A stretch of DNA of 64,000 bases. It comes from an uncultured bacterium. Its GTDB lineage: Bacteria > Patescibacteriota > Minisyncoccia > UBA6257 > 2-01-FULL-56-20. A program made the translations under genes and the position numbers. The notes beneath the pieces were generated by a model. It made no database searches, was not told the origin of the DNA, and saw only the letters and a list, made by a program, of their open reading frames with translations. The stretch is taken from NCBI GenBank assembly GCA_963725235.1, contig CAVRXN010000002.1, positions 186,902 through 250,901 of the forward strand, written 5' to 3'. Positions 2,024 to 23,128 of this stretch are shown here, one piece after another (positions within the stretch are counted from its first letter, which is position 1; every line of letters starts with the position of its first letter).

Positions 2024-3139
2024 ATGGCAAAAGATTATTACAACATTTTAGGCATCGGCAAAAACGCATCCGAAGACGATATCAAAAAAGCATATCGTAA
2101 ATTGGCGCACCAATATCATCCGGACAAGACCGGCGGTGATGATAAAAAGTTCAAGGAGATCAACGAAGCGTATCAGGTGTTATCCGACAAAAATCGGCGT
2201 ATGCAGTACGACCGGTTTGGGACGGCCGAACCGTTCGGCGCCGGCGGCGCGGGCGGTTTTCCTGGTGGCGGTTTTCCCGGCGGCGCGCAATGGGGCGGCT
2301 TCGGTTTCGATCCATCGCAATTCAACGGACAGTTCAACGGTGCCGATATGGGCGATCTCGGTGATATGATGGAAAGTATTTTCGAAGGATTCGGCGTTGG
2401 CCCACGGCGGAAGACATACGAGAAAGGCGCCGACCTCGAATTGCAGGAGCATATTACACTAGAAGAATCCTTCCGCGGGCTCGTGAAAAATATTAAATTG
2501 CGGACGCTCGTCGAATGCGCGAAATGCAAAGGCAAGGGCGCCGAGCCGGGCAGTGGTTTCGAAAAGTGCACGACCTGCGATGGGCGCGGCGAGATCCGCG
2601 AAGAGAAGCGCTCATTCTTTGGTAGTTTTTCCCAGGTGCGGACCTGTTCGAAATGCCATGGCACGGGCGAAATTCCGAAGAAGGCCTGCAACACATGCAA
2701 GGGCTCCGGCCGCGTCGAATCCGACCGCGACATTCGCCTCGAAATTTTGCCGGGCATCGAAGACAACCAGCTGATACAAATCCGCGGAGCCGGCGAAGCA
2801 GGTGAGCGTGGAACCGCAGCGGGCGATCTCTATATCCGCGTTCGCGTCAAACCGCATTCGGTTTTTGAACGCCATGGCGCGAACCTCGTCGTCGCGCGTG
2901 AATTGAACGTCGTCGATTTATTACTCGGCCGCAAGATCGAAGTGCCGACCATCGCTGGTGGCCATCTCGCAATCGATATTCCAGCTGGCTCCAATCTGAA
3001 AGAAAATTTCCGTATCGTGGGCGAAGGCATGCCGCATTTCAACTCCCGCGGCCGCGGCGACCTGTACGTTAACTTCATCATAAAAGCGCCGAAGAAACTC
3101 GACGGGAAGGCACGGAAAGCGTTGGAGGACGGGGAGTAG
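2024..3139 (+). CDS. dnaJ: Co-chaperone DnaJ (Hsp40)
   Basis: J-domain [35 protein letters not shown], a G/F-rich linker, and four CxxCxGxG zinc-finger repeats ([32 protein letters not shown]). Confidence 0.95.
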
Positions 3140-3469: not shown

Positions 3470-3671
3470 TTTTCGACCACGCGAAATAATCAAATTTCTT
3501 ATGGCCAATGGATTCACTCTCGACCACGTAAGCGGCAGTCATTATATATTCTACAACCCGACCAATAAGCGTCGTGCCGTCGTTCCGCGCCATAATCATG
3601 ATATGCCGAAAGGGACGCTATTAGCGCTTTTGAAAGAGGCGGGATTTACCAAAGAAGATTTCTTGAGGTAA
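3441..3671 (+). CDS. hicA: HicA-family mRNA interferase toxin (YcfA/HicA)
   Basis: PREIIKFLMANGFTLDHVSGSHYIFYNP..RAVVPRHNHDMPKGTLLALLKEAGFTKEDF matches the HicA pattern. 76 aa, paired with hicB. Confidence 0.85.
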   Translation: MISSMPKLPSFRPREIIKFLMANGFTLDHVSGSHYIFYNPTNKRRAVVPRHNHDMPKGTLLALLKEAGFTKEDFLR

Positions 3672-4212
3672 GAATAAGCGTTACGATAGCGACAATAAAA
3701 ACAGCCGCTTCGAATGCCAGTTCCGGACTGCGCAAGTAATGCTTGACCCAATCCGGATCACCAAACTCTGCTGCGGCCTGTTTTTGCTCGCCCGGCGTCC
3801 ACGAAACGACAAATTGCCGAGCAGATTTCCCATCCTTACCCGCAAAGAATTTATAATATTTTTTTGAGAATGGATATAGCCAGCGAATACCCCAGCCGCC
3901 GCCTTTGGGAATGGAGTCGTGAAGAAAATGCCAGAATGATAGGGCCGCAAAGAGCCATGCGACGGCGATGCTCCAGAAAGATAATATGATGAATCCAATG
4001 CCAATAAAGATAATGGGATTATGTGTGATGTCGCGATGCTCGTGGGCGAACTCATCGAGCTGTTTTTCCTTGAAAAAATAAATAGCAAAATCTATATCAG
4101 GCAGGAGTGAGAATAAAATGGAGACCAGAAGAATGCGCCAATCGAGAGGGACGCTTTCGGCGTGGACAAAGATGATGGCTGCAAAGATTCCGATTCCAAT
4201 GTCGAGAGGCAT
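3646..4212 (-). CDS. Membrane-bound metal-dependent hydrolase (DUF457/YdjM-like)
   Basis: Multi-TM protein with LLPDIDF.. and HEHRDITHNPI motifs typical of DUF457. A TATAAT box (4219-4224, minus strand) lies 6 nt upstream of the ATG. Confidence 0.7.
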   Translation of the reverse strand: MPLDIGIGIFAAIIFVHAESVPLDWRILLVSILFSLLPDIDFAIYFFKEKQLDEFAHEHRDITHNPIIFIGIGFIILSFWSIAVAWLFAALSFWHFLHDSIPKGGGWGIRWLYPFSKKYYKFFAGKDGKSARQFVVSWTPGEQKQAAAEFGDPDWVKHYLRSPELAFEAAVFIVAIVTLILTSRNLLW

Positions 4213-4241
4213 AATGACATTATAGCAAGAAATGCTATTAT

Positions 4242-4871
4242 ATGACTATGAATTTGAAAGAACAGCTTACCCAAGCTAAGAAAACGCGATGGCTTGATAT
4301 TGGCAGTGGCGGGAATTTCGAAGATGGATTTTATTATCTTGATACTTTTCCGGAAGGGATGGTCGATGAACGTTTTCGAAAAAGATACTTTCGTGCCGAT
4401 CTTTTGAATAGTTCCGACTTGAAGTTGAAAGAATTAGGAACTTTTGATTTGGTGCGGTTGCAGCATACTTTCGAGCACTTTACTCCGGAAGAAGGCCTGC
4501 GTGTTTTGCAAACATGCGCAAGATTGTTGAATGATGGCGGTTATATTTTGATTAGTGTTCCAGATCTCAGGGTTCATATAGAGAAGTATAGAAATGGTGG
4601 TTATGCTGATTGGAAAGGGTTTAGATGGTGGGCGAATCAAAGAATTTCTGAGAATGCGCCGGATAGTTTTTACTTTTCGATTTTTGCTCATAGTATGCCA
4701 TATGAAGGTCATAAGTGGTGCTATGATAACGAGGGCTTGCAATTTCAACTAGAGCAAGCGGAAGTTTTTGTTGATATCCAAGAATTGAAATTGGACAACC
4801 CCCTATCTTCAACTCCATTTACACACAATCGTCCAGAAGAAGATGTTTGCTATCTTGCTCGGAAAAAATGA
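4242..4871 (+). CDS. Class I SAM-dependent methyltransferase; possible start at 4248
   Basis: LDIGSGGN (motif I-like), followed by LLNDGGYILISVPD (post-II/III motif). Stop TGA overlaps the next gene's ATG (ATGA at 4868-4871). Confidence 0.65.
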   Translation: MTMNLKEQLTQAKKTRWLDIGSGGNFEDGFYYLDTFPEGMVDERFRKRYFRADLLNSSDLKLKELGTFDLVRLQHTFEHFTPEEGLRVLQTCARLLNDGGYILISVPDLRVHIEKYRNGGYADWKGFRWWANQRISENAPDSFYFSIFAHSMPYEGHKWCYDNEGLQFQLEQAEVFVDIQELKLDNPLSSTPFTHNRPEEDVCYLARKK

Positions 4872-6632: not shown

Positions 6633-7718
6633 ATGCAAAATCCTTTTAATAATCTTTTTAACTTTGGCAGCAATTCATATCTTGCGGTCGATATTGGGAC
6701 GACATCTATTAAGGCGGTGGAAATAAAAACCGACAAGCGCGCGCCGCGGATTACCAATTACGGCGTGCTCGAATCGAGCGGCTATTTGGCGCGGGCGAAC
6801 CAGGCGCTCCAGACGAGCAGTTTGAAAATATTCGAAGGCGACGTTATCGAATTGCTAAAAACGTTGACCAAGCAGATGGGCGTGCAAACGTCTCAGGCGG
6901 TCGCATCACTCCCGCCGTTTTCGGCATTTACGACCGTCCTCGATTTTCCGAAGATGGATCCGAAGGAAATCGAGAAGGCCATGGTGTATCAGGCGAAGCA
7001 GTATGTCCCGCTACCGCTTTCCGAAGTAGCGCTCGATTGGCTCTTGATCGGCGAGTATCAGGATGATAAAGGATTCGAACACCAAAAAATTATGCTGATC
7101 TCCGTCCCGCAGGAGCAGATCCAAAAATATCAGCGGATTTTTAAAGGTGCGGGCCTCGACTTGAAAGCGCTCGAGATCGAAAGTCTAAGTATCGCGCGGA
7201 CGATGAGCGACGATCCGACGCCGACGCTCGTTATCGATATCGGCAGCCGATCGACGAATATCGTCTTCATGGAAGACGGCCGGTTTACGTTCAGCGGCCA
7301 GAGTGATTTCGGCGGCGCATCGCTTACCCAGGCGCTCGCGACGAGCTTAGGCATCAATCCGTTGCGAGCCGAGGAACTGAAAAAAGAGCGTGGCATCGTC
7401 GGCACCGGGCCGAACTACGAATTATCCACAATCATGCTTCCATTTTTAGATGCTATACTGAATGAGGTGAAGAAGGTCCAGTTTTTATACCAGCAACAGC
7501 TGCCGTCGGCAAGGAAAACCGAGCGCGTCGTACTCGCCGGCGGAGGAGCCAACCTCCTCGGCATCGAAAAGTATTTCGAACGGGAGTTCGGCATGCCGGT
7601 TGTAAAGGCTGCGCCGTTTCTGAAGTATGATCACCCGGCTTCCATCGAACCCTTCGTTTCGGAGCTCAATCCGGTTATGTCGATCGCGCTCGGCCTCGGC
7701 ATGAAGATTGCAAAATAA
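6633..7718 (+). CDS. pilM: Type IV pilus assembly protein PilM (actin-like ATPase fold)
   Basis: N-terminal LAVDIGTTSIKAVEIK phosphate-1 motif, LVIDIGSRSTNIVF, VVLAGGGANLLGIEKYFEREFGMPV. First gene of the pilMNO block. Confidence 0.85.
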   Translation: MQNPFNNLFNFGSNSYLAVDIGTTSIKAVEIKTDKRAPRITNYGVLESSGYLARANQALQTSSLKIFEGDVIELLKTLTKQMGVQTSQAVASLPPFSAFTTVLDFPKMDPKEIEKAMVYQAKQYVPLPLSEVALDWLLIGEYQDDKGFEHQKIMLISVPQEQIQKYQRIFKGAGLDLKALEIESLSIARTMSDDPTPTLVIDIGSRSTNIVFMEDGRFTFSGQSDFGGASLTQALATSLGINPLRAEELKKERGIVGTGPNYELSTIMLPFLDAILNEVKKVQFLYQQQLPSARKTERVVLAGGGANLLGIEKYFEREFGMPVVKAAPFLKYDHPASIEPFVSELNPVMSIALGLGMKIAK

Positions 7719-8301
7719 CAACGATATGCCACTTCCACAGCAGGTTATCAATCAGTTGTCCCGTGAACCGGCGGAAACGCCAGGATGGTCCACCGGGATC
7801 ATTTTCTTTTCCGGCGCATTGCTCGTTATCGTGCTCGCGGTCTATTTCGCGATGATATTATTTTTCGAACCGCATATCAACACGCAGATTTCGAACATCG
7901 ATAGCCAAGTACAAACCCTCAGCCAATCGATTTCGTCACAGGACCAAACGAATCTCCTGACGTTCTACTCCCAGATTTCCAATTTGCAATCGCTGTTGGC
8001 GCATCACGTCCTCTTCTCGCAATTTTTAACCTGGCTTGAACAAAACACGGAAACAAATGTTGCCTATACTTCGTTTTCATTCAGCTCCGGCAACCAGATC
8101 TCGCTGACCGCAACTGCGGCGAGCGAAGCGGATATTAACCAGCAGATCGCGATCTTCCAGGCATCGCCGGAAGTTGAGAATGTTGTGATATCGAACGTCA
8201 GCGCTGCATCAACCGGCGGCGGCTTCCAATTCTCGGCGACGCTGCTGATGAACCCATCCGTATTTATCGCGTCGGCAACCGCTTCAACAACCGCACCATG
8301 A
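7708..8301 (+). CDS. pilN: PilN-like bitopic pilus assembly protein (TTG start at 7708, or ATG at 7726)
   Basis: A single N-terminal TM helix (IIFFSGALLVIVLAVYFAMILFF) followed by a periplasmic-type domain. Called mainly from its position after pilM. Confidence 0.55.
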   Translation: MQNNNDMPLPQQVINQLSREPAETPGWSTGIIFFSGALLVIVLAVYFAMILFFEPHINTQISNIDSQVQTLSQSISSQDQTNLLTFYSQISNLQSLLAHHVLFSQFLTWLEQNTETNVAYTSFSFSSGNQISLTATAASEADINQQIAIFQASPEVENVVISNVSAASTGGGFQFSATLLMNPSVFIASATASTTAP

Positions 8302-8882
8302 AACAAACCTCCAAGCGATTAATGAGTATCGGGTCGGCATTGCTTTTTATCGTCGTTGCGCTCGTCGTACTCTTTGATTTGGTCCAGCCCGAATACGGAA
8401 ATTTCCAGACGTTGAAAGGGCAGCTCGCGGGTGAGCAGGCGTTTTTGCAAAGCGAGACGACGGCTGTTGCGCAGGCACAGACGCTGATCAGCCAGTATCA
8501 AGGGCAGAGCGCAAGCGCGCAAACCGCGGCGCTCGCCGTGCCAACCGGTGAAGATCTTGCGGGCGCACTCGCGCAGGTCTACGGGCTGGCAGCGAATAGT
8601 AAGGGTTTGGTGATACAAACCGTCGGCGTCAGCGCGCCGGCGCTCCAGTCGCAGACAGCATCGTCGACCCAATTGGTCCAGCCGCTCGGGACGATAACAT
8701 TTCAAATTTCCGCCATCGGCAGCTATGAAGCGTTGCAGGATTTTCTCTCTGGCCTCGAAACCAATGTGCGGATATTCGACATAAAGGGGTTATCGGTCGC
8801 CCCTGCGAACGGGGCGACAGGCAAGTCCCAGGATTTTTTCACGTATAATCTAACAGTAGCGACCTATTATCAAACACAGTAA
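8298..8882 (+). CDS. pilO: PilO-like bitopic pilus assembly protein
   Basis: N-terminal TM helix (IGSALLFIVVALVVLF), a coiled-coil segment, and ATGA overlap with pilN. Position-based call. Confidence 0.55.
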   Translation: MKQTSKRLMSIGSALLFIVVALVVLFDLVQPEYGNFQTLKGQLAGEQAFLQSETTAVAQAQTLISQYQGQSASAQTAALAVPTGEDLAGALAQVYGLAANSKGLVIQTVGVSAPALQSQTASSTQLVQPLGTITFQISAIGSYEALQDFLSGLETNVRIFDIKGLSVAPANGATGKSQDFFTYNLTVATYYQTQ

Positions 8883-9184
8883 TGGCTATTATTATCGAAG
8901 AAGAAAAAATTAATAAATCGAACGCCACGAACCTGCTCGGCTGGTTTGTTATCATCGTCGCGCTTGGCGCCGCTGCCTATTATCTTTTCTTCGTGAGCGC
9001 CGCGCCAACAATCATAACCCCCCCCGCCGGATTCAGTAATATCACCCCGATTACACAGATAACGATCAATCCGCAGGCCGTCATAGCCAGCCCCCAGTTT
9101 ACGTCTCTTACGCAGACCGTCGCCGAACCGACATCGACAGGACCCGCTGCGGTCGGCCGCCAAGACCCATTCCTCGTGCCATAG
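8882..9184 (+). CDS. Small bitopic membrane protein, pilus-locus accessory (function unknown)
   Basis: 100-aa ORF with one TM helix (LLGWFVIIVALGAAAYYLFFV). TAATG overlap with pilO. Confidence 0.45.
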   Translation: MAIIIEEEKINKSNATNLLGWFVIIVALGAAAYYLFFVSAAPTIITPPAGFSNITPITQITINPQAVIASPQFTSLTQTVAEPTSTGPAAVGRQDPFLVP

Positions 9185-9202
9185 GTGTGGTAAAATGTAA
9201 GT

Positions 9203-10933
9203 ATGAATGATGAACAGCTCCTCGCACAGCTGCAAGCACAAAATTTAGTCGACGCCGCGACGGCGACGCGTCTCAAGCGCGATGCTCTGATCGGTAGTGA
9301 ATCGATCGAGTCGCTGATTTCGCGGCAGCATATGGTTGACGACGTGCAGGTGGCGCAGATAAAGAGCGCGGCGCTGAAAGTGCCGTATAAGAAAGTCGAT
9401 CTAACAACGATCGATGCGAAACTGCTGCAAATGCTTCCCGAGGATACCGCGCGGACCTATGCGGCCATCCCGCTCTCATTCGATAACAACCTGCTCGTTA
9501 TCGGGATGGTCCATCCGGACGATGCAAAAGCGCAGGACGCAGTGAAATTTATCGCGCGGCAAAACCGCTGGAATCTCGGCGTGTATTTGATTTCATACGG
9601 CGACTGGCAGGATGCCCTGAAAAAATATTCGCCGTACCGGAACGAGATTGAAAAGGCGGTCGAATCGCTCAATATTAAAGAAGGCGACAACCAACGAAAG
9701 GTGGTACAGCTCGGCGCAATGGGCGGCGCCGAAGATGCGCCAATCATCCGGATCGTTTCCGACACGTTTCAGGAAGCGGTCGAGAGTAAAGCATCCGACA
9801 TCCATATCGAACCGCAGGAAAAATTCCTGCGCGTTCGTTTGCGTATCGACGGCGACCTTCGCCAAGTTGCATCGCTTCCGCCCGAGCTTGCCCAGCCAGT
9901 CGCGTCGCGCGTCAAAGTTATTTCAAATTTAAAAATCGACGAAACGCGTATCCCGCAAGACGGCCGCTTCCGTGCACGCATCTTTGACCGCGACATCGAC
10001 TTCCGCGTCGCAACATTCCCAACGCCGCTCGGCGAAAAAATCGCGATCCGCGTTCTCGACCCATCAAGCGGCCTGAAGGGATTCGATAATTTGCCATATT
10101 CCGACCATAACCGAAAAACGATAACCGAAGCACTCGACAAGCCGTTCGGCATGGTACTCGTAACGGGTCCAACCGGTTCCGGAAAAACGACGTCGCTCTA
10201 CGCAATTTTGCAAAAATTAAATACCGAAGACGTAAACATCGTTTCACTCGAAGATCCGGTCGAATATTTCGTAAGCGGTATTAACCAGTCGCAGGTCAGG
10301 CCGGAAATCGGCTACGATTTCGCATCCGGCCTCCGACAAATTCTGCGCCAAGACCCCGACGTCATCATGGTCGGCGAAATTCGCGACAGTGAAACTGCCG
10401 GCTTGGCCATTCAGGCAGCGCTGACCGGCCATATCGTTTTGTCGACGTTGCATACGAATAACGCCGCCGGCGTCATCCCGCGCTTGATCGATATGAAAGT
10501 TGAACCGTTCTTGATTCCGGTTTCATTAAATTTGATAGTCGCGCAGCGGTTGATCGGAACGCTTTGCCCCGATTGCAAACAGCCGGAAGAAGCATCCGCG
10601 CTGGTTCAGGAAATTATCGCCCGCGCAATCGACGATTTGCCCGAAGACGCCAAACCGGCGGTAACCGCGAAATATCAAGCGCCCTACAAGATCTACCACG
10701 CGAAAGGATGCAACACCTGCAAAGGCCGCGGCATTCTCGGCCGCAGCCAGATTCAGGAAGTGTTCCGGATGACGCCTGCAATCGAGCGCATCGTCGCCGA
10801 AGGCCCAACAATCGAGAAGCTGACCGCCGAAGCAAAGCGGCAGGGAATGGTCACACTGCGACAGGATGGCGTCGTAAAAGCACTCGACGGCCAGTTCTCA
10901 ATGGAGGATGTGTTGAGGGAGACGGAGGACTAA
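9203..10933 (+). CDS. pilB: Type IV pilus assembly (extension) ATPase PilB / GspE family
   Basis: T2SSE N-terminal domain, Walker A GPTGSGKTT, Asp box, Walker B DPDVIMVGEIRD, His box LTGHIVLSTLHTN, tetracysteine CPDC..C..C. Confidence 0.95.
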   Translation: MNDEQLLAQLQAQNLVDAATATRLKRDALIGSESIESLISRQHMVDDVQVAQIKSAALKVPYKKVDLTTIDAKLLQMLPEDTARTYAAIPLSFDNNLLVIGMVHPDDAKAQDAVKFIARQNRWNLGVYLISYGDWQDALKKYSPYRNEIEKAVESLNIKEGDNQRKVVQLGAMGGAEDAPIIRIVSDTFQEAVESKASDIHIEPQEKFLRVRLRIDGDLRQVASLPPELAQPVASRVKVISNLKIDETRIPQDGRFRARIFDRDIDFRVATFPTPLGEKIAIRVLDPSSGLKGFDNLPYSDHNRKTITEALDKPFGMVLVTGPTGSGKTTSLYAILQKLNTEDVNIVSLEDPVEYFVSGINQSQVRPEIGYDFASGLRQILRQDPDVIMVGEIRDSETAGLAIQAALTGHIVLSTLHTNNAAGVIPRLIDMKVEPFLIPVSLNLIVAQRLIGTLCPDCKQPEEASALVQEIIARAIDDLPEDAKPAVTAKYQAPYKIYHAKGCNTCKGRGILGRSQIQEVFRMTPAIERIVAEGPTIEKLTAEAKRQGMVTLRQDGVVKALDGQFSMEDVLRETED

Positions 10934-10980
10934 GAGACACCCAGACAAGGAGACAAAGATACACGGAGACAGAAGACAAG
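10933..10980 (+). repeat. GAGACA-type dispersed repeat, copy A (purine-rich strand on +)
   Basis: AGAGACACCCAGACAAGGAGACAAAGATACACGGAGACAGAAGACAAG. Shares GAGACAAAGA and ACACGGA with the reverse complement of copy B. It also shares TGTCTTCTGTCTCC and GTCTGGGTGT (as reverse complement) with the copy inside pilD. Confidence 0.7.
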
Positions 10981-10986
10981 CGACTG

Positions 10987-10995
10987 TGCTATAAT
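10987..10995 (+). promoter_or_regulatory. Extended -10 promoter element TGCTATAAT upstream of pilT
   Basis: A perfect TGnTATAAT lies between the two inverted repeat copies, 60 nt upstream of the pilT ATG. Confidence 0.5.
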
Positions 10996-11010
10996 TTTCT
11001 TGTAGATCTC

Positions 11011-11052
11011 CGGTCTCTTCGTATCCGTGTCTTTCTGTCTCTTTGTCTCTCT
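11011..11052 (+). repeat. GAGACA-type dispersed repeat, copy B (inverted relative to copy A)
   Basis: CGGTCTCTTCGTATCCGTGTCTTTCTGTCTCTTTGTCTCTCT. Its reverse complement GAGAGACAAAGAGACAGAAAGACACGGATACGAAGAGACCG aligns with copy A and with the ligA copy. Confidence 0.7.
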
Positions 11053-11055
11053 ACT

Positions 11056-12129
11056 ATGGACGACTTTAAAGCAAAACTTATCGACTTGCTGACGACGACG
11101 GCGAAGCAGAATGCTTCCGATTTGCATTTGGCGGTCGGACGGCGGCCGACGTTGCGTATCGATGGCGTACTCGTGCCGCTCCAGAAAGAGCCAATTACGA
11201 CGCCGGAAGTTGCGGAGGGGATTATCGGCGCGCTGATAACGGATGAGCAAAAGCAGAAATTGATCCGCGACCGGCAGGTGGACTTTGCCTACAGCTTCGA
11301 GGACAAAGCGCGCTTCCGCGTCAACGTATATTACCAGCGCGGCTATCTCGCAGCGGCGCTTCGCTTGGTTCCGAACCGCATCAAGACGATCGAAGAGCTC
11401 AACTTGCCGCCGCTCCTCCACGATCTCGCAAAGCTTTCGCAGGGATTCGTCCTCGTCGTCGGTCCCGCTGGCCACGGTAAGTCCTCGACCCTCGCCGCAA
11501 TTATCGACGAGATCAACCACACGCGCTCCGACCATATTATTACCATCGAAGACCCCGTCGAATATTTATTTACGCAGGACAAGTGCATCGTCTCCCAGCG
11601 CGAAGTCGGCAGTGACGCCGTCGGTTTCCATTCCGCGCTGCGAACGGTTCTCCGCCAAGACCCCGACGTCATCATGATCGGCGAAATGCGCGACGCCGTT
11701 TCGATCGGCACGGCGATGACCGCATCCGAAACCGGCCACTTGGTGTTATCGACGCTCCATACGAACTCCGCCTCGCAAACAATCGACCGCATCATCGACT
11801 CATTCCCAGCCGAACAGCAGGGCCAGGTGACATCCCAGCTCGCGGCGACGCTCGTCGCAATCATTTCCGAACGCTTGATGCCGCGCTTGTCCGGCGGCCG
11901 CATCCCGGCGATGGAAATCATGATCGTGAATCCCGCCATCAGGAACCTTATCCGCGAACGGAAAACATACCAGATCGACCTCGTGATCGAAACCAGTTTG
12001 CAGGAGGGGATGGTGACGCTCAACCGGTCGCTCGTAAACTTGGTGAAGAATAAAGAGATTTCACTCGAGAATGCCGAGCTGTATTCGCTGAATCCGGCGG
12101 AGTTGCGGATTCTTCTCGAAAGAACATAG
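11056..12129 (+). CDS. pilT: Twitching-motility (retraction) ATPase PilT
   Basis: MDDFKAKLIDLL..ASDLHLAVGRRPTLRIDG, Walker A GPAGHGKSST, DPDVIMIGEMRD, TGHLVLSTLHTNSA, AIRNLIRE motif. The 5' extension of ORF 10564 is a spurious overlap with pilB. Confidence 0.95.
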   Translation: MDDFKAKLIDLLTTTAKQNASDLHLAVGRRPTLRIDGVLVPLQKEPITTPEVAEGIIGALITDEQKQKLIRDRQVDFAYSFEDKARFRVNVYYQRGYLAAALRLVPNRIKTIEELNLPPLLHDLAKLSQGFVLVVGPAGHGKSSTLAAIIDEINHTRSDHIITIEDPVEYLFTQDKCIVSQREVGSDAVGFHSALRTVLRQDPDVIMIGEMRDAVSIGTAMTASETGHLVLSTLHTNSASQTIDRIIDSFPAEQQGQVTSQLAATLVAIISERLMPRLSGGRIPAMEIMIVNPAIRNLIRERKTYQIDLVIETSLQEGMVTLNRSLVNLVKNKEISLENAELYSLNPAELRILLERT

Positions 12130-12141
12130 TTTTGTTACGCA

Positions 12142-13360
12142 ATGAAATTCAAATATCAAGCCCGAACTAAACAAGGCGAGATGCAGGTTGGGTTCGTTGA
12201 GGCGGGCAGCCGCGACGGCGCAATCGGCATCCTGACGTCCCACGACCTGTTCGTCTTGAAAGTCGAGTCGTCGGAATCCGTCAGCCCGCTCGATCGCGTA
12301 AACGCTTTTCTCTCGAAGCCGCGCCGGAAAGATATGATCATCTTTTCACGCCAGCTCGCGACGCTACTCGAAGCGCGCTTACCGCTCAATAACGCACTGA
12401 AGATTCTTTCCCAGCAGACCAGAACAAGTCACTGCAAGGCGGCAATCGGGCAGGTGACGGAAGACATCGACGCCGGTTTATCATTTTCGCAGGCGATGGC
12501 GCGCCAGCCGAATATTTTTCCCGACTACTATGTCGAGATGATCCGCGCGGCGGAGGTGACGGGCAATATGAACGAGGTGTCGACCTTCCTCGCCGACTAT
12601 ACCGAGAAGGAAGCGGAGCTTTGCGAGCAAGGCGTCGTCGGCGCATGATCTATCCGGGCATCGTGCTCGCCGTGTTCTTTGTTGTCGCATTCATCTTGCT
12701 GACATTCGTTTATCCGGCGCTCGGCTCCGTCTTCGCCGAGAACGGTGTCACGTTGCCATGGTACACGAAAATACTGCTCGCAACCGGCAATTTCTTGGCG
12801 AAGTGGTGGCCGGTCGTTATCATCGCGATCGCCGCCCTCGGTTTCGTCATCGTCGATTACTTCGGAACTGACGAAGGCAAAGCGCTGCTCGATGACGCGA
12901 AGATAACGCTGCCGATCGTGAAGCAAGTCTACAATCCGGTCATCATGGCGCGCTTCGGTAACTCGGCCGCGCTCCTCGTCCACGGCGGCATCCCGATCGC
13001 GCAGTCGATGGAGATCATCGGCCATATGGTCGACAACGTTTTATATCGCGACGTCATCCACGATATCGCCGAAGACGTCCGGCAGGGCATTTTGCTGTCT
13101 GAAGCATCGCGAAGCATCCGCGTTTCTTCCCGTCGCTCGTCCCGCAGATGGTCGCCGTCGGCGAAACGACCGGCAAGGTAGAAGATATGTTCAACCGCCT
13201 CGCCACTATCTACACCCGCGACGCCGACAAGATAACCAATAACCTCGTCGACCTCATCCAGCCAATCCTCATCATCGGCATGGGTCTTATGGTCGGCCTG
13301 CTGTTCGCTTCGATCCTCATCCCGATCTATAGCTTGACGGCAAATGTCGGGAATGGGTAA
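12142..13360 (+). CDS. pilC: Type IV pilus platform protein PilC (GspF family), split over three frames by two apparent 1-nt indels
   Basis: ORFs 12142..12648, 12621..13181 and 13148..13360 together give a collinear PilC: IFSRQLATLLEARLPLNNAL.., MIYPGIVLAVFFVV.., FPSLVPQMVAVGETTGKVEDMF..IQPILIIGMGLMVG. Frame changes occur at the T-run 12620-12622 and at GAAG 13111-13114. Confidence 0.85.
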
Positions 13361-13415
13361 GGCGGGCGGCAGCGCCGAGTTTTCCACAGGTCTGCCGGTT
13401 GCCCCAGTCGCGGGA

Positions 13416-13424
13416 TGGTATACT
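13416..13424 (+). promoter_or_regulatory. Extended -10 element TGGTATACT upstream of the major pilin gene
   Basis: TGnTATACT about 50-60 nt upstream of the pilin start. The leader contains the purine-rich tract AAAGAAAGGGAAAGAGAAAGG (SD-like). Confidence 0.4.
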
Positions 13425-13476
13425 AAAAGTGACCTAAAGAAAGGGAAAGAGAAAGGTCGAGATACTTATTAAATAA

Positions 13477-13998
13477 ATGTTAAACGAAATGAAAGATTTC
13501 AACCGAAAGGGTTTTACGCTTATCGAAATCTTGATCGTCGTCGCAATCATCGCAATCTTGGCATCCATCGTTCTCGTCGGTCTCGGGCCCAGCCAACAGG
13601 CAGGCCGCGATGCGCGCCGATTGTCGGATTTGCATGAAATCCAGACCGGTCTCGAATTGTACTACAATGCCTGCGGATATTATCCAGGTACCGACACAAA
13701 AACGCCGTGTACTGGATATAAAAACTCAACAGGATTCGTAGCCCTAAAAGGCATTCTTACCGGATTTGCGAGTTTAGGTATCACCAGCGTTCCTGATGAT
13801 CCGACAGGAGGGAAGCATTATACTTATAGCACTGTTCCAGGTACAGGAACTTCGTATGTGTTGAGTGCTACTTTGGAAAATGCTAATAATACCGTTTTCA
13901 CGAGCTACACTCCTCCAAATAATGCAGCGGCTGCTACTGATGGAGATGGCAAGCAGACCTGTGCTGCGGCTGGTCCTCAGTATTGTATTTCTATCTAG
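13477..13998 (+). CDS. pilA: Major type IV pilin (prepilin with N-terminal cleavage/methylation motif)
   Basis: Leader ..NRKG followed by FTLIEILIVVAIIAILASIVLVGL (G/FTLIE class III signal, Glu5). A strong terminator lies immediately downstream. Confidence 0.85.
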   Translation: MLNEMKDFNRKGFTLIEILIVVAIIAILASIVLVGLGPSQQAGRDARRLSDLHEIQTGLELYYNACGYYPGTDTKTPCTGYKNSTGFVALKGILTGFASLGITSVPDDPTGGKHYTYSTVPGTGTSYVLSATLENANNTVFTSYTPPNNAAAATDGDGKQTCAAAGPQYCISI

Positions 13999-14030
13999 TG
14001 TAGTGTTAGGTTGGTGGAATCGTTTTCCCG

Positions 14031-14056
14031 AAAACCCCGCCTCGTGCGGGGTTTTT
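14031..14056 (+). terminator. Rho-independent terminator after the pilin gene
   Basis: AAAACCCCGC-CTCGT-GCGGGGTTTT: a GC-rich stem followed by a T-run. Confidence 0.7.
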
Positions 14057-14212
14057 GATTGTCGGCGAGCGCGGTGCAGCAAGGGGAGATTTCAGCAACT
14101 CAAAAACCGCCTTTTAGCGGTCTTTGATCGGGGTACTTTTGGCACCCAGCCTCCTCGCCAGATGATTATCATAATACCCCCGTTGTGTCGGGTTCTGCGC
14201 TATAATAAACCC

Positions 14213-15067
14213 ATGCTCTGGTTTCTTCTCTTTGTCTTCGGCGCAGCGATCGGGAGTTTTTTAAACGTCGTCGCGGTTCGGTATGACGGCGAAAAGTTTT
14301 TGTTCTCAACGAAAGCGATCGGCGGCCGCTCGCATTGTCCGCACTGCAAGAAAACCCTCCAGTGGTACGAACTGATCCCACTCGCCAGCTTCGCAATACA
14401 AGGCGGCAAGTGCCGAAACTGCAAAGCGCACATCTCATGGCGCTATCCGATTATGGAACTGCTCTCCGCCGCTATCTTTGTCTTCGTCCCATTCTTTCTG
14501 TCTTCTGTCTCCCTGTCTTCTTTGTCTTTTGTCTCCCTGTCTCTCGTCTGGGTGTTCGCATTCGAGCTCCTCCTCCTGATCGCCTACATCGACCTCTTGC
14601 TAACCATCATCCCGGATGAACTAAACATCGCCCTTGCCGTCGTCGCACTCGTCGAGATCATATTATCAATACACGCGTTCGGCGCCGCCAACCAATCATC
14701 CTTCGGCCCATTCGCAAGCGTCTTCGGCTTACAATCGAATATCTGGATCAACCACATAGTCGCCGCCGTGTTCGGCGTCGCGTTCTTCGGCGCGATCGTC
14801 GGCGCGACGCGTGGACGGGGGATGGGTATGGGCGACGCGAAGCTCGCGTTGCCGCTCGGCCTGCTCTTCGGCTGGCCCGATATCCTGATCATCGCCATGA
14901 TAGCGTTCGTCATCGGCGGCGCGTACGGGCTGATCGCGATAACGGCTGGCAGGAAGACGATGAAAAGCGCTGTGCCATTCGGACCATTCCTCGTCATCGC
15001 CTCGACCATCGCATTCTTCGCCGGCACCGGTTTATTTAACTGGTATTTCCATATGTTAGGATTATAG
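14213..15067 (+). CDS. pilD: Prepilin peptidase / N-methyltransferase PilD (A24 family)
   Basis: MLWFLLFVFGAAIGSFLNVV, zinc cysteines CPHC..C.NC, catalytic Asp motifs IDLLLTIIPDE and GMGMGDAKL. TATAAT at 14201-14206 is 6 nt from the ATG. The longer ORF from 13865 crosses the pilin terminator and is rejected. Confidence 0.9.
   Translation: MLWFLLFVFGAAIGSFLNVVAVRYDGEKFLFSTKAIGGRSHCPHCKKTLQWYELIPLASFAIQGGKCRNCKAHISWRYPIMELLSAAIFVFVPFFLSSVSLSSLSFVSLSLVWVFAFELLLLIAYIDLLLTIIPDELNIALAVVALVEIILSIHAFGAANQSSFGPFASVFGLQSNIWINHIVAAVFGVAFFGAIVGATRGRGMGMGDAKLALPLGLLFGWPDILIIAMIAFVIGGAYGLIAITAGRKTMKSAVPFGPFLVIASTIAFFAGTGLFNWYFHMLGL
14476..14557 (+). repeat. GAGACA-type dispersed repeat, copy C, embedded in frame in pilD
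   Basis: CTTTGTCTTCGTCCCATTCTTTCTGTCTTCTGTCTCCCTGTCTTCTTTGTCTTTTGTCTCCCTGTCTCTCGTCTGGGTGTTC. Contains the exact 14-mer TGTCTTCTGTCTCC and 10-mer GTCTGGGTGT found in the reverse complement of copy A. Translated as FVPFFLSSVSLSSLSFVSLSLVWVF. Confidence 0.7.
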
Positions 15068-17033: not shown

Positions 17034-17903
17034 ATGAAACAGCTCTTTTTCGCTACGTTTTTGCTCGCGTTTTCGCACGTGAGTACATTGTTGGGGCAAT
17101 CAGAGCCGTCCATGGCTCGGGATCTTGAGATTTCTAGTCCGAACTTGGGCCTGGTCTATTCGTCTCCTTCGGGGAACTCCTGTATCACCTTGAGGGTCGC
17201 AATCGGAGACGCCAATGGGGTTCCGCTTGAAAAAGAACTCCAAGCGTTTGGCAGTCAGAGTTTCGGCGACGTCTCGTTCTGCCCGGGCGTCACGGTGAAA
17301 TTCTCGGTTGCCGACCTTCCGCCTGGAACATATCAGGTGCACGTCACGGATCCGACGAATGGGGCGATCGACCAGACGCTTAACCTTCCATTGAATGGCG
17401 CTGAAAATCGTCTCACCACCGAAAGCGAAAACTCGCAATCGGCCGCGATTATGGCTAGCCAAGCATTTTCGCCGGGGACGGGTTTTTTTGCATACGTATC
17501 GCCCGATGAGCAGCCGGCTGGCAGCACGGTCATCTATTTGACTGGCAACGGATATCCGTACAATAGGGCACCGAGGTACGTTCTCTCGCAGAAACAAGAC
17601 GATGGCACTTGGGTGACGTGGGAGGCCAGGCCCCAGGTTGGTCAGTACTCGGAGTTCTGCAACGAGGTCGATTACTTTCAGGCAGAATCGGGCGGCACGC
17701 TTGTAGAGAGAGATCTATGGGCGCAAACGCTGACGGTGCCGGTCCCGTATATTCGGGAGGATAGGCCAACGTATGCAACCATCATCGACGATAATCCCGA
17801 TGGTTATCGTGGCCAAAGCGTGACGATCGTTCTGATTTCGCTAGCCTCAATGCGCACCGCTTTCCCGGTATGCCATCCGGGCGGGCAGTTCTCATTCAAC
17901 TAG
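17034..17903 (+). CDS. Secreted protein of unknown function (signal peptide)
   Basis: N-terminal MKQLFFATFLLAFSHVSTLLGQ signal-like sequence. 289 aa, no recognisable domain. Confidence 0.6.
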   Translation: MKQLFFATFLLAFSHVSTLLGQSEPSMARDLEISSPNLGLVYSSPSGNSCITLRVAIGDANGVPLEKELQAFGSQSFGDVSFCPGVTVKFSVADLPPGTYQVHVTDPTNGAIDQTLNLPLNGAENRLTTESENSQSAAIMASQAFSPGTGFFAYVSPDEQPAGSTVIYLTGNGYPYNRAPRYVLSQKQDDGTWVTWEARPQVGQYSEFCNEVDYFQAESGGTLVERDLWAQTLTVPVPYIREDRPTYATIIDDNPDGYRGQSVTIVLISLASMRTAFPVCHPGGQFSFN

Positions 17904-17980
17904 CAACCGTAGCCGGTCCCAGTTCCTTGTAGGGGCTGTCGATATCCACATCGACGGCCCCTTTTATTAACCAATATGTT

Positions 17981-18529
17981 ATGATTATTCTAATGGAAAC
18001 AAGACGTGGTTCAGTCCTGATCATCCTCATTATCGTCGTCGTAATTATTATCGCCCTCGTTGCATGGTGGATTATTTGGCAACAGGGGATGGCCGAACAG
18101 GCCCCAACAACAACGGCGACCACTACGCCTTCGTCAACTATCAATTATTTATCCGACGATCAAACCCCGACCGGCATTCCGTCGGGTCTGCCAATAGATG
18201 CGAGTCCGGAAATTTTGCAAAATTCCCAGAGCAATTATCCGGTGTCCCGGCCGCAGCAAGCACTCTTCGAATATGTGACGGCGAAAACGGTGGAGCAAGC
18301 CTATGCCGACTATATGAATTATCTCCGACAAAATAATTGGATCGTCACTGCGTCGAGCACGGCGAGTGGCGTCGGCAGAATCTCCGCGCAAACGAAGTTC
18401 GTCGCCATGAGCGTGATTATTGGGACGAACACCGTGTTGAACCAGAATACCGTCACGATCGCGACGAACTATTACGCTCCGTCAACGGCACCGTTGAGCG
18501 AGACATCTACGGCGACAGGCAGGCCATAA
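17981..18529 (+). CDS. N-terminally anchored membrane protein of unknown function
   Basis: RRGSVLIILIIVVVIIIALVAWWIIW TM anchor followed by a Thr-rich linker and a ~130-aa domain. Confidence 0.55.
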   Translation: MIILMETRRGSVLIILIIVVVIIIALVAWWIIWQQGMAEQAPTTTATTTPSSTINYLSDDQTPTGIPSGLPIDASPEILQNSQSNYPVSRPQQALFEYVTAKTVEQAYADYMNYLRQNNWIVTASSTASGVGRISAQTKFVAMSVIIGTNTVLNQNTVTIATNYYAPSTAPLSETSTATGRP

Positions 18530-21031: not shown

Positions 21032-23128
21032 ATGACGAAGGCCGCCGCCCGCGAGCGCATTGAACAGTTGAAAAAACTGATTGCCAAATACCGCTCCTCG
21101 CGGCTGACTTTTAATAAAGAATTAATTTCACCCGAAGCCGAGGATGCGCTCAAAAAAGAATTGTTCGATCTCGAAACGCAATTTCCGGATTTGGTAACTG
21201 CGGATTCGCCGACCCAGCGGATCGGCGGGGCGCCATTAAAAGAATTTAAAAAAGTTCACCACACCGAGCGGATGACGTCGTTTAACGATGCGTTCAGCGA
21301 GGATGATATGCGCGCGTGGTTCAAGCGGTTGGAGGATTATTTAGGCAGAGAGCGCAGGAGAGAAAGAGAGCAGAGAGTGGAATTTTACTGCGAGCTAAAA
21401 ATCGATGGTCTCGCGATCGAGCTCGAATATGAGAACGGTGTTTTCGTTCGCGGGTCGACGCGCGGGGATGGGATGGTCGGCGAAGATGTTACCCAGAATC
21501 TGAAAACCATCGAAGCGATTCCGCTGCAGATTTCGGGCGACGGTTTGCCGCGCGGGATCAAGATGCCGCAGCGTTTGATCGTCCGCGGCGAAGTTTTTTT
21601 AACCAAGCGCGAGTTTGCGCGCATCAACCGCGAGCTCGCCGCGCGCGATGCGAAGACCTACGCGAATCCACGCAACGTCGCCGCCGGCTCAATTCGCCAG
21701 CTCGATCCGCGCATCACGGCCTCGCGCCGTCTCGATTCGTTCCAGTATGACATCGTGACCGACCTCGGCCAGAAGACACACGAAGAGGAACACGAACTCC
21801 TCGCCGCGATGGGTTTTCGGACGAATCCGAACAATCGGTTAGTTCACTCACTCGAGGAAGTTTTTAAGTTTCGCGACTATTGGGGTGAACACGAACGGCG
21901 CGAGAAAATCGACTACGAATATGACGGCATCGTCGTTATTGTTAATGATAATTTAATTTTCGAGCGCGGCGGCATTATCGGCAAAGCGCCGCGCGCCGCG
22001 ATGGCGTACAAATTTTCACCGCGCGAGGCGACGACGATTGTCGAAGACATCAAAGTCCAGGTCGGCCGAACCGGCGCGCTGACGCCGGTTGCCGTCATGC
22101 GGCCCGTTAATGTCGGCGGCGTAACGATAACGCATGCGTCGCTGCATAACGCCGACGAGATTGAACGACTCGGCCTGAAGATTGGCGATACGGTCATTGT
22201 TCAGCGTGCAGGCGATGTCATTCCGCAGATTACTCGCGTGTTGCCGGAGCTGCGGACGGGTCGCGAACGGGCGTTTAAGATGCCGACGCGTTGTCCGGTC
22301 GATGGATCGCCGGTTGTTCGCGACGCCGACGGCGCAATCTCGCGCTGCTCGTCACGCCAGTGTGCCGCCCAACATCGTGAACAGCTCTCTCATTTCGTCT
22401 CGCGCGCCGCGTTTAACATCGAGGGCCTCGGCCCAAAAATCATCGACAAGTTCCTCGACGAAGGATTGATCGCCGATGCCGCAGATTTTTTCTCGCTGCG
22501 CGCCGGCGACATCGCCGCACTCGAGCGATTCGGCGAGAAGTCGGCGGAGAATATTGTTAGCGAAGTTGCTGCGAAACGGCGCGTGACGCTGCCGCGGTTT
22601 TTGTATGCGCTTGGGATTTTGCACGTCGGTGAGGAAACGGCGGTGGCGTTGGCGAGAAATACTGACTTTGGACAAAGGGACAAAGAAACAGGGAAACACG
22701 GAAATATACACATTAAGGATATATTAAAAATGTTTCGCGAACTCTCACTCGACGACTTGCAAAAAATCCCCGACATTGGCCCGAAAGTTGCGCAGAGTAT
22801 TTATGATTGGTTTCATGAGTCACGCAACGCGAAGTTGCTCGAGCGGCTCGAGAAGGCGGGAGTCGAAGTAGAAATCCCGGCCGGAGTTACCGCGCGAGGA
22901 AAGCTCGCCGGACAATCGTTCGTTATCACCGGCAGCTTGGAGTCCATGAGTCGCGAGGAGGCGAAGGAAAAAATTCGCGAGCAAGGCGGTGATGCATCCG
23001 AATCCGTATCGGGCAAAACCAGCTATCTCGTCGCCGGCAGCGAGCCCGGATCGAAGTTCGAGAAGGCGAAGAAGCTTGGCGTGAAGGTGATTGGGGAGAA
23101 GGAATTTCTAAAATTGATTGGACAATAA
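21032..23128 (+). CDS. ligA: NAD-dependent DNA ligase LigA
   Basis: Adenylation motif CELKIDGLA, OB fold, Zn-finger CPVDGSPV..C..C, HhH motifs, C-terminal BRCT (GQSFVITGSLESMSREEAKEKIREQGG). Confidence 0.95.
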   Translation: MTKAAARERIEQLKKLIAKYRSSRLTFNKELISPEAEDALKKELFDLETQFPDLVTADSPTQRIGGAPLKEFKKVHHTERMTSFNDAFSEDDMRAWFKRLEDYLGRERRREREQRVEFYCELKIDGLAIELEYENGVFVRGSTRGDGMVGEDVTQNLKTIEAIPLQISGDGLPRGIKMPQRLIVRGEVFLTKREFARINRELAARDAKTYANPRNVAAGSIRQLDPRITASRRLDSFQYDIVTDLGQKTHEEEHELLAAMGFRTNPNNRLVHSLEEVFKFRDYWGEHERREKIDYEYDGIVVIVNDNLIFERGGIIGKAPRAAMAYKFSPREATTIVEDIKVQVGRTGALTPVAVMRPVNVGGVTITHASLHNADEIERLGLKIGDTVIVQRAGDVIPQITRVLPELRTGRERAFKMPTRCPVDGSPVVRDADGAISRCSSRQCAAQHREQLSHFVSRAAFNIEGLGPKIIDKFLDEGLIADAADFFSLRAGDIAALERFGEKSAENIVSEVAAKRRVTLPRFLYALGILHVGEETAVALARNTDFGQRDKETGKHGNIHIKDILKMFRELSLDDLQKIPDIGPKVAQSIYDWFHESRNAKLLERLEKAGVEVEIPAGVTARGKLAGQSFVITGSLESMSREEAKEKIREQGGDASESVSGKTSYLVAGSEPGSKFEKAKKLGVKVIGEKEFLKLIGQ
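22671..22709 (+). repeat. GAGACA-type dispersed repeat, copy D, in frame inside ligA
   Basis: GACAAAGGGACAAAGAAACAGGGAAACACGGAAATATAC aligns with the reverse complement of copy B (GACAAAGAGACAGAAAGACACGGATAC). Encodes part of DFGQRDKETGKHGNIHIK. Confidence 0.6.

Follow-up and report, generated by a model that had tools for sequence, protein, structure and literature searches.

A simple-repeat hairpin between pilB and pilT of an uncultured Patescibacteria bacterium, with a predicted promoter in its loop

Described repeat systems and the structure of the spacer

STRR sequences are made of specific heptamer units and reach a high copy number across the genome. Between hupS and hupL such repeats, usually 7 bp long, are able to fold into a hairpin loop; no function is known for them, and roles in transcript stability or translational coupling have been suggested (PMC2670836). 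The title of Vioque 1997 places STRR in heterocystous cyanobacteria. Correia elements (CREE/NEMIS) of Neisseria supply promoter elements and form mRNA hairpins that are cut by RNase III; they are restricted to Neisseria and have 26-bp Correia repeat ends, a conserved core and an IHF site (PMC2649163). The RPE family also has in-frame copies within protein-coding genes (PMC2229807). In template switching, a single event creates and extends a stem, and quasi-palindrome stems can be extended and homogenised also beside promoters (PMC8794818; PMC13100816). The element analyzed here is the spacer between pilB (type IV pilus assembly ATPase) and pilT (retraction ATPase) in a 64-kb stretch of DNA, hereafter the window, from an uncultured bacterium. 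Among described systems, its architecture comes closest to that of the cyanobacterial STRR hairpin between hupS and hupL.

The pilB stop codon (TAA) is at 10931-10933 and the pilT start codon (ATG) at 11056, which gives a spacer of 122 nt (10934-11055). This length, and a 48-nt unit at 10933-10980 with its sequence, agree exactly with an earlier reading of the same DNA (the initial annotation). The unit is the left arm of the element (10933-10980, plus strand). It is purine-rich (37 of 48 positions, counted by reading) and is made of about six degenerate octamers of the type NNNAGACA with an AGACA core: AGAGACA CCCAGACA AGGAGACA AAGATACA CGGAGACA GAAGACA AG. The right arm (11007-11052, plus strand) is pyrimidine-rich and has about five inverted octamers of the type GTCTCNNN, reading GGTCTC TTCGTATC CGTGTCTT TCTGTCTC TTTGTCTC TCT; it ends 3-5 nt before the pilT ATG. 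A profile of the unit matches the left arm with 38.8 bits and the right arm, on the minus strand, with 37.2 bits. Tandem Repeats Finder reports a period of 8 in both arms. The 8-bp periodicity is strict and the AGAC(A) core is invariant across the octamers, while the units are otherwise degenerate. As the initial annotation had stated, the arms share GAGACAAAGA (one occurrence per arm) and ACACGGA (by reading).

The arms form an inverted repeat (10933-10976 and 11007-11050) of 44 nt with 70% complementarity, or 77-82% in the inner registers (repeat finder). Of 18 inverted repeats in the window that measure 16 nt or more, this one is by far the longest. As RNA the spacer folds into a single long imperfect stem of 45 pairs with a minimum free energy (MFE) of -47.3 kcal/mol and a z-score of -4.63; none of 200 dinucleotide shuffles folds as well. 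The imperfect inverted pair and the strong pairing potential proposed earlier are thus borne out, and the feature is real and more than chance. In a longer context (10860-11120) the stem reaches the last pilB codons, with 10918-10930 pairing with the 3' part of the right arm, and stops 5 nt before the AUG. The sense and antisense folds are -47.3 and -47.4 kcal/mol. The hairpin does not have the form of an intrinsic terminator, which has a U-tract right behind a GC-rich stem: here CUCUACUAUGG comes after the stem, with no U-tract, and a terminator scan lists nothing at 10931-11055. Elsewhere in the window a canonical intrinsic terminator lies within 17895-17990 (13-bp stem GGGGCUGUCGAUA...UAUCGACGGCCCC, then UUUUAUU) and a small one follows the pilin gene (14100-14130); therefore, the genome does use ordinary terminators.

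Two other forms of the repeat were considered. A DNA cruciform at the promoter is unlikely, with DNA-parameter folds of only -23.5 and -21.9 kcal/mol. A 30-nt spacer between imperfect arms also disfavors a cruciform. Phase variation by slippage was rejected since the units are degenerate and not identical, which makes them a poor slippage substrate. Rfam searches, at an E-value threshold on the spacer and at the gathering threshold on the window and eight loci, returned only sub-threshold miRNA-like hairpins and three tRNAs. The element belongs to no described family, and the initial annotation was right not to recognize one.

Like STRR, the window element has short tandem units in one arm (about 8 bp, against 7 bp in STRR) and their complements in the other, can form a hairpin, and fills an intercistronic operon spacer from stop to start; it therefore has the STRR-type architecture. 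The units are also lineage-specific in both, and arrays occur inside functional genes. The differences are in the host (Patescibacteria, not cyanobacteria), in the degenerate 8-nt GAGACA-type unit, in the presence of three arrays in 64 kb that all belong to one operon, and in the promoter within the loop. By its unit length, host and copy number it is not a member of STRR. Like CREE and other bacterial MITEs (miniature inverted-repeat transposable elements; ERIC, RUP, RPE), it is a small non-coding palindrome next to genes, and its length (118-122 nt, below 200 bp) and terminal inverted repeats agree with the size and shape of a bacterial MITE (PMC2229807). However, CREE and MITEs are multi-copy (at least 100 CREE per genome); their terminal repeats are conserved and 24-26 bp long, and they have TA ends and target duplications, whereas the window has one palindrome with an ancestral host loop, simple-repeat arms and no family. 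It is not a CREE: the sequence is unrelated, the source is a Patescibacteria metagenome-assembled genome (MAG) and there is no Rfam match. The likeness to template-switch quasi-palindromes is in the inverted copy of nearby sequence, which can be written in one event; the stems of relatives likewise copy the pilB 3' end. Template switching differs from the element families in being a mutational mechanism, and in the window the switch points are not reconstructable, since the arms have diverged and there is no close outgroup. MetJ-type ribbon-helix-helix repressors bind tandem 8-bp AGACGTCT met boxes, which are palindromic 8-mers in 2-5 copies read by a known repressor of Gammaproteobacteria. 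The window arrays share with these the 8-bp tandem periodicity, an AGAC core and the position at a promoter, which makes MetJ a lead; however, no such protein or palindromic unit is seen in the window.

The predicted promoter in the loop and the junction in relatives

Between the arms lies the loop core TGTGCTATAATTTTCTTGT (10984-11002, plus strand) with an exact extended -10 box, TGCTATAAT at 10987-10995, where the initial annotation had placed it. The box fits the sigma-70 extended -10 form TGnTATAAT and is at a conserved orthologous position, as expected of a promoter. In a promoter scan of 6-16 kb the top sigma-70-like site, at 10 of 12 matches, is GAGACA-18 nt-TATAAT, which has a TG upstream. 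The -35-like hexamer of this site (GAGACA, 10966-10971) is the last full left-arm unit, 18 nt upstream of the -10 box. Transcription would start near 11002, about 7 nt past the box.

The junction was compared in 80 loci (numbered with the prefix L) around PilT relatives from species-representative genomes and in metagenome contigs of the closest PilB/PilT homologues. The nearest relative, L082, is 97.5% identical in PilT (tblastn) and 90.6% in PilB, with a synonymous divergence (dS) of 0.7-1.2. An exact look-up of the window PilT gave no record. A PilT homologue search found none closer than L081/L082 and listed nothing above 94% identity, the latter because one representative is shown per 90% cluster.

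Orthologous TGnTAnAAT boxes are present in L082, L084, L004, L207, L081 and L083. The loop has its homologues in the complete spacers of L084 (taaATGTGATATAATTTTTGTatg, 18 nt), L082 (tagAAAATATGTTATAATTTTCATatg, 21 nt), L004 and L207 (22 nt, containing TGTTACAAT), and the match to these short spacers includes the T-rich stretch after the box, which the other window promoters do not have. The L081 spacer is 45 nt long. In L084, L082, L207 and L081 there are 6-8 nt between the end of the box and the pilT ATG, as in genes with a leaderless mRNA. Since the loop is homologous to complete spacers of relatives, the promoter predates the arms, with two blocks added on either side: 51 nt from stop to promoter and 53 nt from promoter to ATG. 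The loop is thus the ancestral spacer and has been kept although synonymous divergence is saturated. The suggestion of the initial annotation that a MITE delivered the pilT promoter is not supported by this comparison.

None of the spacers read in relatives (23 compared, plus L207 and L205/L206) contains the arms, and no locus has AGAC clusters like those of the window at the pil junction. In an all-against-all comparison of 24 pilB-pilT spacers only the promoter cores match; therefore, no alignment is usable for compensatory changes. Around the conserved promoter loop the relatives hold unrelated sequences, not the filled and empty sites of one family.

The junction is an insertion hot spot in this clade, and its spacers range from 1 to 1753 nt. 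Folding goes with spacer length: among spacers of at least 100 nt, 9 of 11 fold at z <= -2.9; of those with 41-82 nt, seven of nine are at z > -1 and the other two are at -3.1 and -3.3. Inserted sequences at the junction include three open reading frames (ORFs) without Pfam hits in L206 (2748-4500), a 105-aa ORF in L205 (4002-4500; a membrane protein by reading only) and a tRNA-Ser(TGA) in L001 (4605-5000). Long perfect or near-perfect stems are found in L003 (4790-4961, 36 nt), L019 (4450-4530, 28 nt), L083 (3553-3780, 28 nt) and L205 (4355-4474, 30 nt); each stands right after pilB or the inserted gene and is followed by a leaderless pilT promoter. The perfect 36-nt stem of L003 starts in the native pilB 3' end, where GAGGAGGGATAA encodes the conserved ...EEG stop, and an inverted copy of it closes the stem. 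The L019 stem includes AGTGA of the native pilB end, and both stems contain the pilB stop codon. Since these stems include the inverted native pilB 3' end, they point to local inverted copying and not to transposition; template switching does yield inverted copies of a host flank (PMC8794818).

The pilB end of the window has related features. Its C-terminus, RETED*, aligns to RETEE*/RETEEA* of the relatives, so the stop is at the ancestral position, and the conserved 3' end (...GGGAGACGGAGGACTAA) already holds GAGAC/GGAC motifs. The last pilB codons, GGAGACGGAGGAC (10918-10930, plus strand), are a direct repeat of 10965-10977 (85%, family D1) and may have been the seed of the array. Tandem Repeats Finder also reports a period-24 array (10920-10979) that spans the pilB end and the left arm. 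At the border of loop and right arm there is a microhomology, with CTTGT common to the loop end and the complement of the left-arm end. The resemblance of GGAGACGGAGGAC to the unit, the shared period-24 repeat and CTTGT favor a local origin at the DNA level.

Leaderless starts seem to be common in this genome. A TAnnnT box, often TGnTAnAAT, ends 5-10 nt upstream of the ATG in 17 of 44 window genes, and a Shine-Dalgarno (SD)-like motif is found in 3 of 44 ATG genes. The organism seems to depend on leaderless mRNAs and on initiation independent of SD motifs. Most genes that lead a transcription unit carry a TAnnnT box just upstream of the ATG; examples of such starts are at 933, 4212-, 9203, 14213, 21032, 45064, 51479 and 56890. 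In 4185-4245, TGCTATAAT is present on each strand, so that two divergent leaderless-type promoters overlap in the 29-nt gap between the genes at 3646-4212 (-) and 4242-4871 (+) and form a short palindromic control region. At pilT, a transcript from the loop promoter would have a pyrimidine-rich leader of 54 nt, without an SD motif, formed by the right arm. This right-arm-only leader has an MFE of -12.2 kcal/mol (z +1.69) and is less structured than 192 of 200 shuffles.

Repeat units elsewhere and the state of the pil cluster

Within the window the GAGACA unit is confined to three places, all in the same operon, and this distribution is what has to be explained. The third array lies inside pilD (14490-14550), with seven TGTCTYY units on the plus strand that encode FFLSSVSLSSLSFVSLSLV. 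Its stretch at 14499-14544 matches the left arm on the minus strand with 83% identity over 47 nt (profile 32.6 bits, E 4e-8). In L081/L082 the variable loop between the two Pfam domains of PilD reads RFSTVAYFATAAATGAPQMAALIGVSAI; in the window it is replaced by FFLSSVSLSSLSFVSLSLV, and the flanking codons are nearly unchanged. This loop is permissive, since its length and sequence vary among all relatives. The units of the left arm and of the pilD array can be aligned one by one; however, two arrays with the same 5-nt core and 8-nt period are already about 75% identical, so the 83% is no proof of common descent. Homology beyond the shared core was considered and set aside, with a unit-spacer match not clearly above chance (an estimate). 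The predicted duplex of the left arm with the pilD array is -60.8 kcal/mol, compared with -43.0 kcal/mol for the left and right arms.

The pattern AGACAN{2,4}AGACA has 10 matches in the window, all in the spacer or the pilD array, where 0.14 are expected. A four-unit pattern has three matches, which are exactly the three arrays (0.00 expected). The initial annotation had listed related copies at three other places. Of these the one in pilD is strong, the one in ligA (22671-22702) is weak and non-significant (11.1 bits, E 0.32), and the rest are isolated 10-mers; no other copy in the window qualifies. The variable loop of LigA (22664-22716) has a period-8 purine array of its own (GGACAAAG twice, then GAAACAGG and GAAACACG); at the orthologous position L082 has a (CG)n-like run. 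Turnover of low-complexity sequence in permissive protein loops seems to be common in this lineage.

The profile built from the three arms recovered only those same arms, all in the pil operon, when applied to 504 kb of Patescibacteria loci. No second whole element of about 118 nt was found in the window or in these loci, and only single arms recur. A metagenome scan with the four-unit pattern gave at least 120 matches. Almost all of those listed are (AGAC)n or (AGAGACAG)n microsatellites on eukaryote-like contigs and are therefore uninformative on family membership. Hairpins of GAGACA-type octamers are also present on IMG/VR phage contigs of 65-67% G+C (L213 5640-5770, L220 about 220-340, L222 12490-12620, L224 about 9000-9120). 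The L213 hairpin folds at -69.9 kcal/mol (z -8.7) and that of L222 at -62.3 kcal/mol (z -4.95), and L220 and L224 carry the same match sequence as L222. The unit and the architecture therefore occur in unrelated genomes as well.

Hairpins with arms of tandem 7-8-mers, made of other units, are present in several relatives. The units include TTTAGRA/CTAAAYY (L018, L030, L009), GCGAAT (L008, L014, L017, L021), CAACAAC (L014) and TAGCCAC (L005). Of the intergenic gaps in the window and L001-L036, 64 of 213 fold at z < -3. With a strict definition (at least three exact 5-mers in one arm and at least three reverse complements in the other), there are nine tandem-unit hairpins in 881 kb against 0.25 expected from local shuffling, a 36-fold excess; all nine are in loci of the Candidate Phyla Radiation (CPR) and none in non-CPR loci. 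L005 and L009 have the layout of the window, with an extended -10 box in the loop and arms that run from stop to start, and their arm sequences are unrelated. In L018 the PilD loop (8460-8488) and an intergenic hairpin arm of the same cluster (2453-2481) are 93% identical over 29 nt (E 2e-7 within the locus). L004 is a weaker case, in which a GC-rich PilD loop resembles the GC palindrome of the spacer.

The TTTAGRA hairpins directly upstream of pilT in L018 (4840-4997) and L030 (3912-4065) share homology over 160 nt. Of the 41 nt in the arm adjoining the pilT ATG, 39 are identical, while PilT is only 60% identical; this points to strong constraint or to horizontal spread of some arrays. The alignment of these two sequences, a sample of two, has one double change, too few to judge compensation by, and a viral scan for the arm found no match. 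Further TTTAGRA copies are at 2925-3096, 7274-7365 and 9800-9870 in L018 and at 4839-4949 in L009. Hairpins of GCGAAT/ACGAAT arrays are present in four species-level genomes at differing intergenic positions of the pilus cluster (L008 3071-3178, L014 7352-7476, L017 4430-4534, L021 9402-9491). Among 38 structured co-directional spacers, which are not only of the tandem-unit kind, the sense fold is the more stable one in 19 and the antisense fold in the other 19 (Wilcoxon p = 0.83). In a family of RNA structures under selection one would expect a lean to the transcribed strand; the lack of a bias argues for a local origin at the DNA level.

The type IV pilus cluster of the window (6633-15067) has, by Pfam, pilM, pilN, pilO, a 100-aa ORF, pilB, pilT, pilC, a pilin gene and pilD. 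PilT has its best genome matches in MAGs of the Patescibacteria (Paceibacteria/Parcubacteria). The gene pilB (9203-10933, plus strand) encodes 576 aa with the Pfam domains T2SSE (1e-126) and MshEN. An intact pilT (11056-12129, plus strand) encodes 357 aa with T2SSE. An N-terminal extension of PilT through the spacer, where the frame is open from 10564, was rejected since the N-terminus MDDF aligns with the relatives. The gene pilD (14213-15067) is a Pfam-confirmed member of the cluster. The pilC gene (12142-13360) is in three reading frames, with at least three indels compared to L081/L082: +1 insertions near 12618 and 12643 and a further shift near 13105. It is the only broken gene among 20 compared with L082, and the other 19 are intact. 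The pilC gene is either a pseudogene or the result of a local assembly error; the break may fit relaxed selection on the pil operon.

Origin and possible roles of the hairpin

The spacer is a repeat-built intercistronic hairpin around an ancestral leaderless promoter, most likely of the template-switch quasi-palindrome kind. That it is a lineage-specific quasi-palindrome of simple-sequence arrays with a local origin, and not a transposed element, seems somewhat more probable than not. The ancestral state would have been an extended -10 promoter within about 20 nt of the pilB stop and 6-8 nt before the pilT ATG, with a leaderless pilT. A GAGACA-type octamer array may then have grown just after the pilB stop, where the pilB 3' end already read GGAGACGGAGGAC, and an inverted copy of the array would have been placed between promoter and ATG. 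The most likely route would be replication slippage together with a template-switch inverted duplication. A third GAGACA array would have overwritten the variable loop of PilD.

These changes could have affected the pilT transcripts. Transcripts from the loop promoter would now carry the open CU-rich leader of 54 nt, and pilT would have gone from leaderless to leadered. The open leader would expose the pilT start, which might suit SD-independent initiation. Both arms would be present only in RNA that reads through from pilB, and this RNA could form the imperfect hairpin of about 45 bp from the stop to 5 nt before the AUG. This hairpin might mask the pilT start unless a ribosome terminating at the pilB UAA melts the base of the stem. 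A hairpin in the pilB read-through transcript was the alternative given by the initial annotation, and it is a possible one. The leader and the masking are probably tolerated by-products and not a proven adaptation.

Several observations weigh against this local-origin account. The mechanism is deduced from the pattern of the letters, and the transcript-level steps are predictions for this organism. The arms are 70-82% complementary, and no fresh switch junction is readable except for the CTTGT microhomology. A nearest relative at a dS of about 1 does not date the arms, and there may be selection on the pairing. The promoter-in-loop layout of L005 and L009 could reflect selection for the architecture, and the near-identity of the TTTAGRA arms in L018 and L030 could mean that some arrays are selected or mobile. 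Finally, a 3-nt direct repeat, CTA (10930-10932 and 11051-11053), flanks the 7-nt perfect termini AGAGACA/TGTCTCT (by reading). It looks like a target-site duplication; however, a repeat of this size has a chance expectation of 1 in 64 and it disagrees with the pilB stop, whose position is conserved.

It is possible, but unlikely, that the hairpin is a selected RNA element that acts in the polycistronic pil mRNA. Such an element might couple pilT translation to pilB termination, in that it draws stop and start close to each other and masks the start; it might serve as an RNase III site or a stabilizer of the pilB 3' end, or insulate pilT, which has its own promoter in the loop, as a terminator without a U-tract. 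The reach of the stem from the stop codon to just before the AUG is consistent with this, as are the shared layout in L005 and L009 with unrelated arms, the nearly constant presence of hairpins in long spacers at the junction, and the roles proposed for STRR hairpins (PMC2670836). The unstructured right-arm-only leader would also give two transcript states. However, there is no sense/antisense asymmetry in the window element or in the structured spacers of relatives as a group, no U-tract is present although the genome has canonical terminators, complementarity is only 70-82%, and the element is absent from all relatives. The GAGACA unit in the coding loop of PilD indicates a mutational source, and the frameshifted pilC downstream leaves the operon under possibly relaxed selection. 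A mobile element of the Correia or ERIC type, inserted between pilB and pilT with its own promoter, is very improbable. The imperfect terminal inverted repeats with their perfect 7-bp ends, the CTA repeat, the small size without an ORF and the insertion hot spot would agree with it, and promoters and RNase III hairpins do arise from Correia elements (PMC2649163). Against it, the loop is the ancestral spacer with its promoter, so that the structure is not explained by one insertion event, and the arms were added as separate blocks on its two sides; an insertion would also have had to recreate the pilB stop at its ancestral position. The recurring unit is a single arm and not the palindrome, a second full copy is lacking in the 64 kb and in the 504 kb of relatives, and the stems of relatives carry inverted host coding sequence, which is not a product of transposition. 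A one-unit insertion, a target duplication and an empty site in relatives, taken together as the signs of a MITE, were not found.

A protein that reads the 8-bp repeats as operator sites, and represses or loops the promoter, also seems very improbable. The strict periodicity and invariant core, the arrays that bracket the -10 box and overlap the -35 position, the restriction of the unit to the pil operon within the window and the GAGACA-octamer arrays on phage contigs would suit an operator; however, the window has no candidate regulator, one array is within the pilD coding sequence, the units are degenerate, and other genomes have quite different units at the same place with no conserved site. 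A resemblance of the arms by chance low complexity alone is scarcely credible. A 5-nt core in an 8-nt period gives about 75% identity in register (an estimate), but the shuffling controls already contradict chance (fold z -4.6), the four-unit and two-unit patterns are far above expectation (3 vs 0.00 and 10 vs 0.14), and the pair is the longest of the inverted repeats in the 64 kb.

A more speculative idea, to which little probability is given, is that Patescibacteria carry an undescribed class of genome-specific, self-propagating tandem-unit palindromes in operon spacers and permissive protein loops, and that the three arrays of the window form a functional set. The left arm could pair with the right arm or, more stably, with the pilD array of the same transcript, 3.5 kb downstream. 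Another possibility is a lineage-specific protein that recognizes the three arrays by their 8-bp periodicity. If the pairing with pilD took place, expression of the pilus motor and the prepilin peptidase would be coupled. The match of PilD loop and arm in L018 and the near-identical TTTAGRA arm at 60% PilT identity would be first signs of such a class.

For the organism, the repeat-built hairpin around an ancestral promoter would mean that an operon spacer was rebuilt in a tiny genome with leaderless mRNAs, so that a promoter that once abutted the start codon is now inside a 45-bp simple-repeat hairpin. It would extend the STRR-type repeat-built hairpin from cyanobacteria to CPR bacteria, where most long pilB-pilT spacers are hairpins. 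Two features stand out: the excess of hairpins as a class in Patescibacteria pil clusters, and the sharing of units between the flanks of a promoter and the PilD loop. For annotation, the locus is a warning that the shape of a palindrome alone is not sufficient to call a MITE or a regulatory RNA. If the hairpins are selected, they would provide a handle on the ratios of pilus proteins in organisms that rarely use SD motifs.

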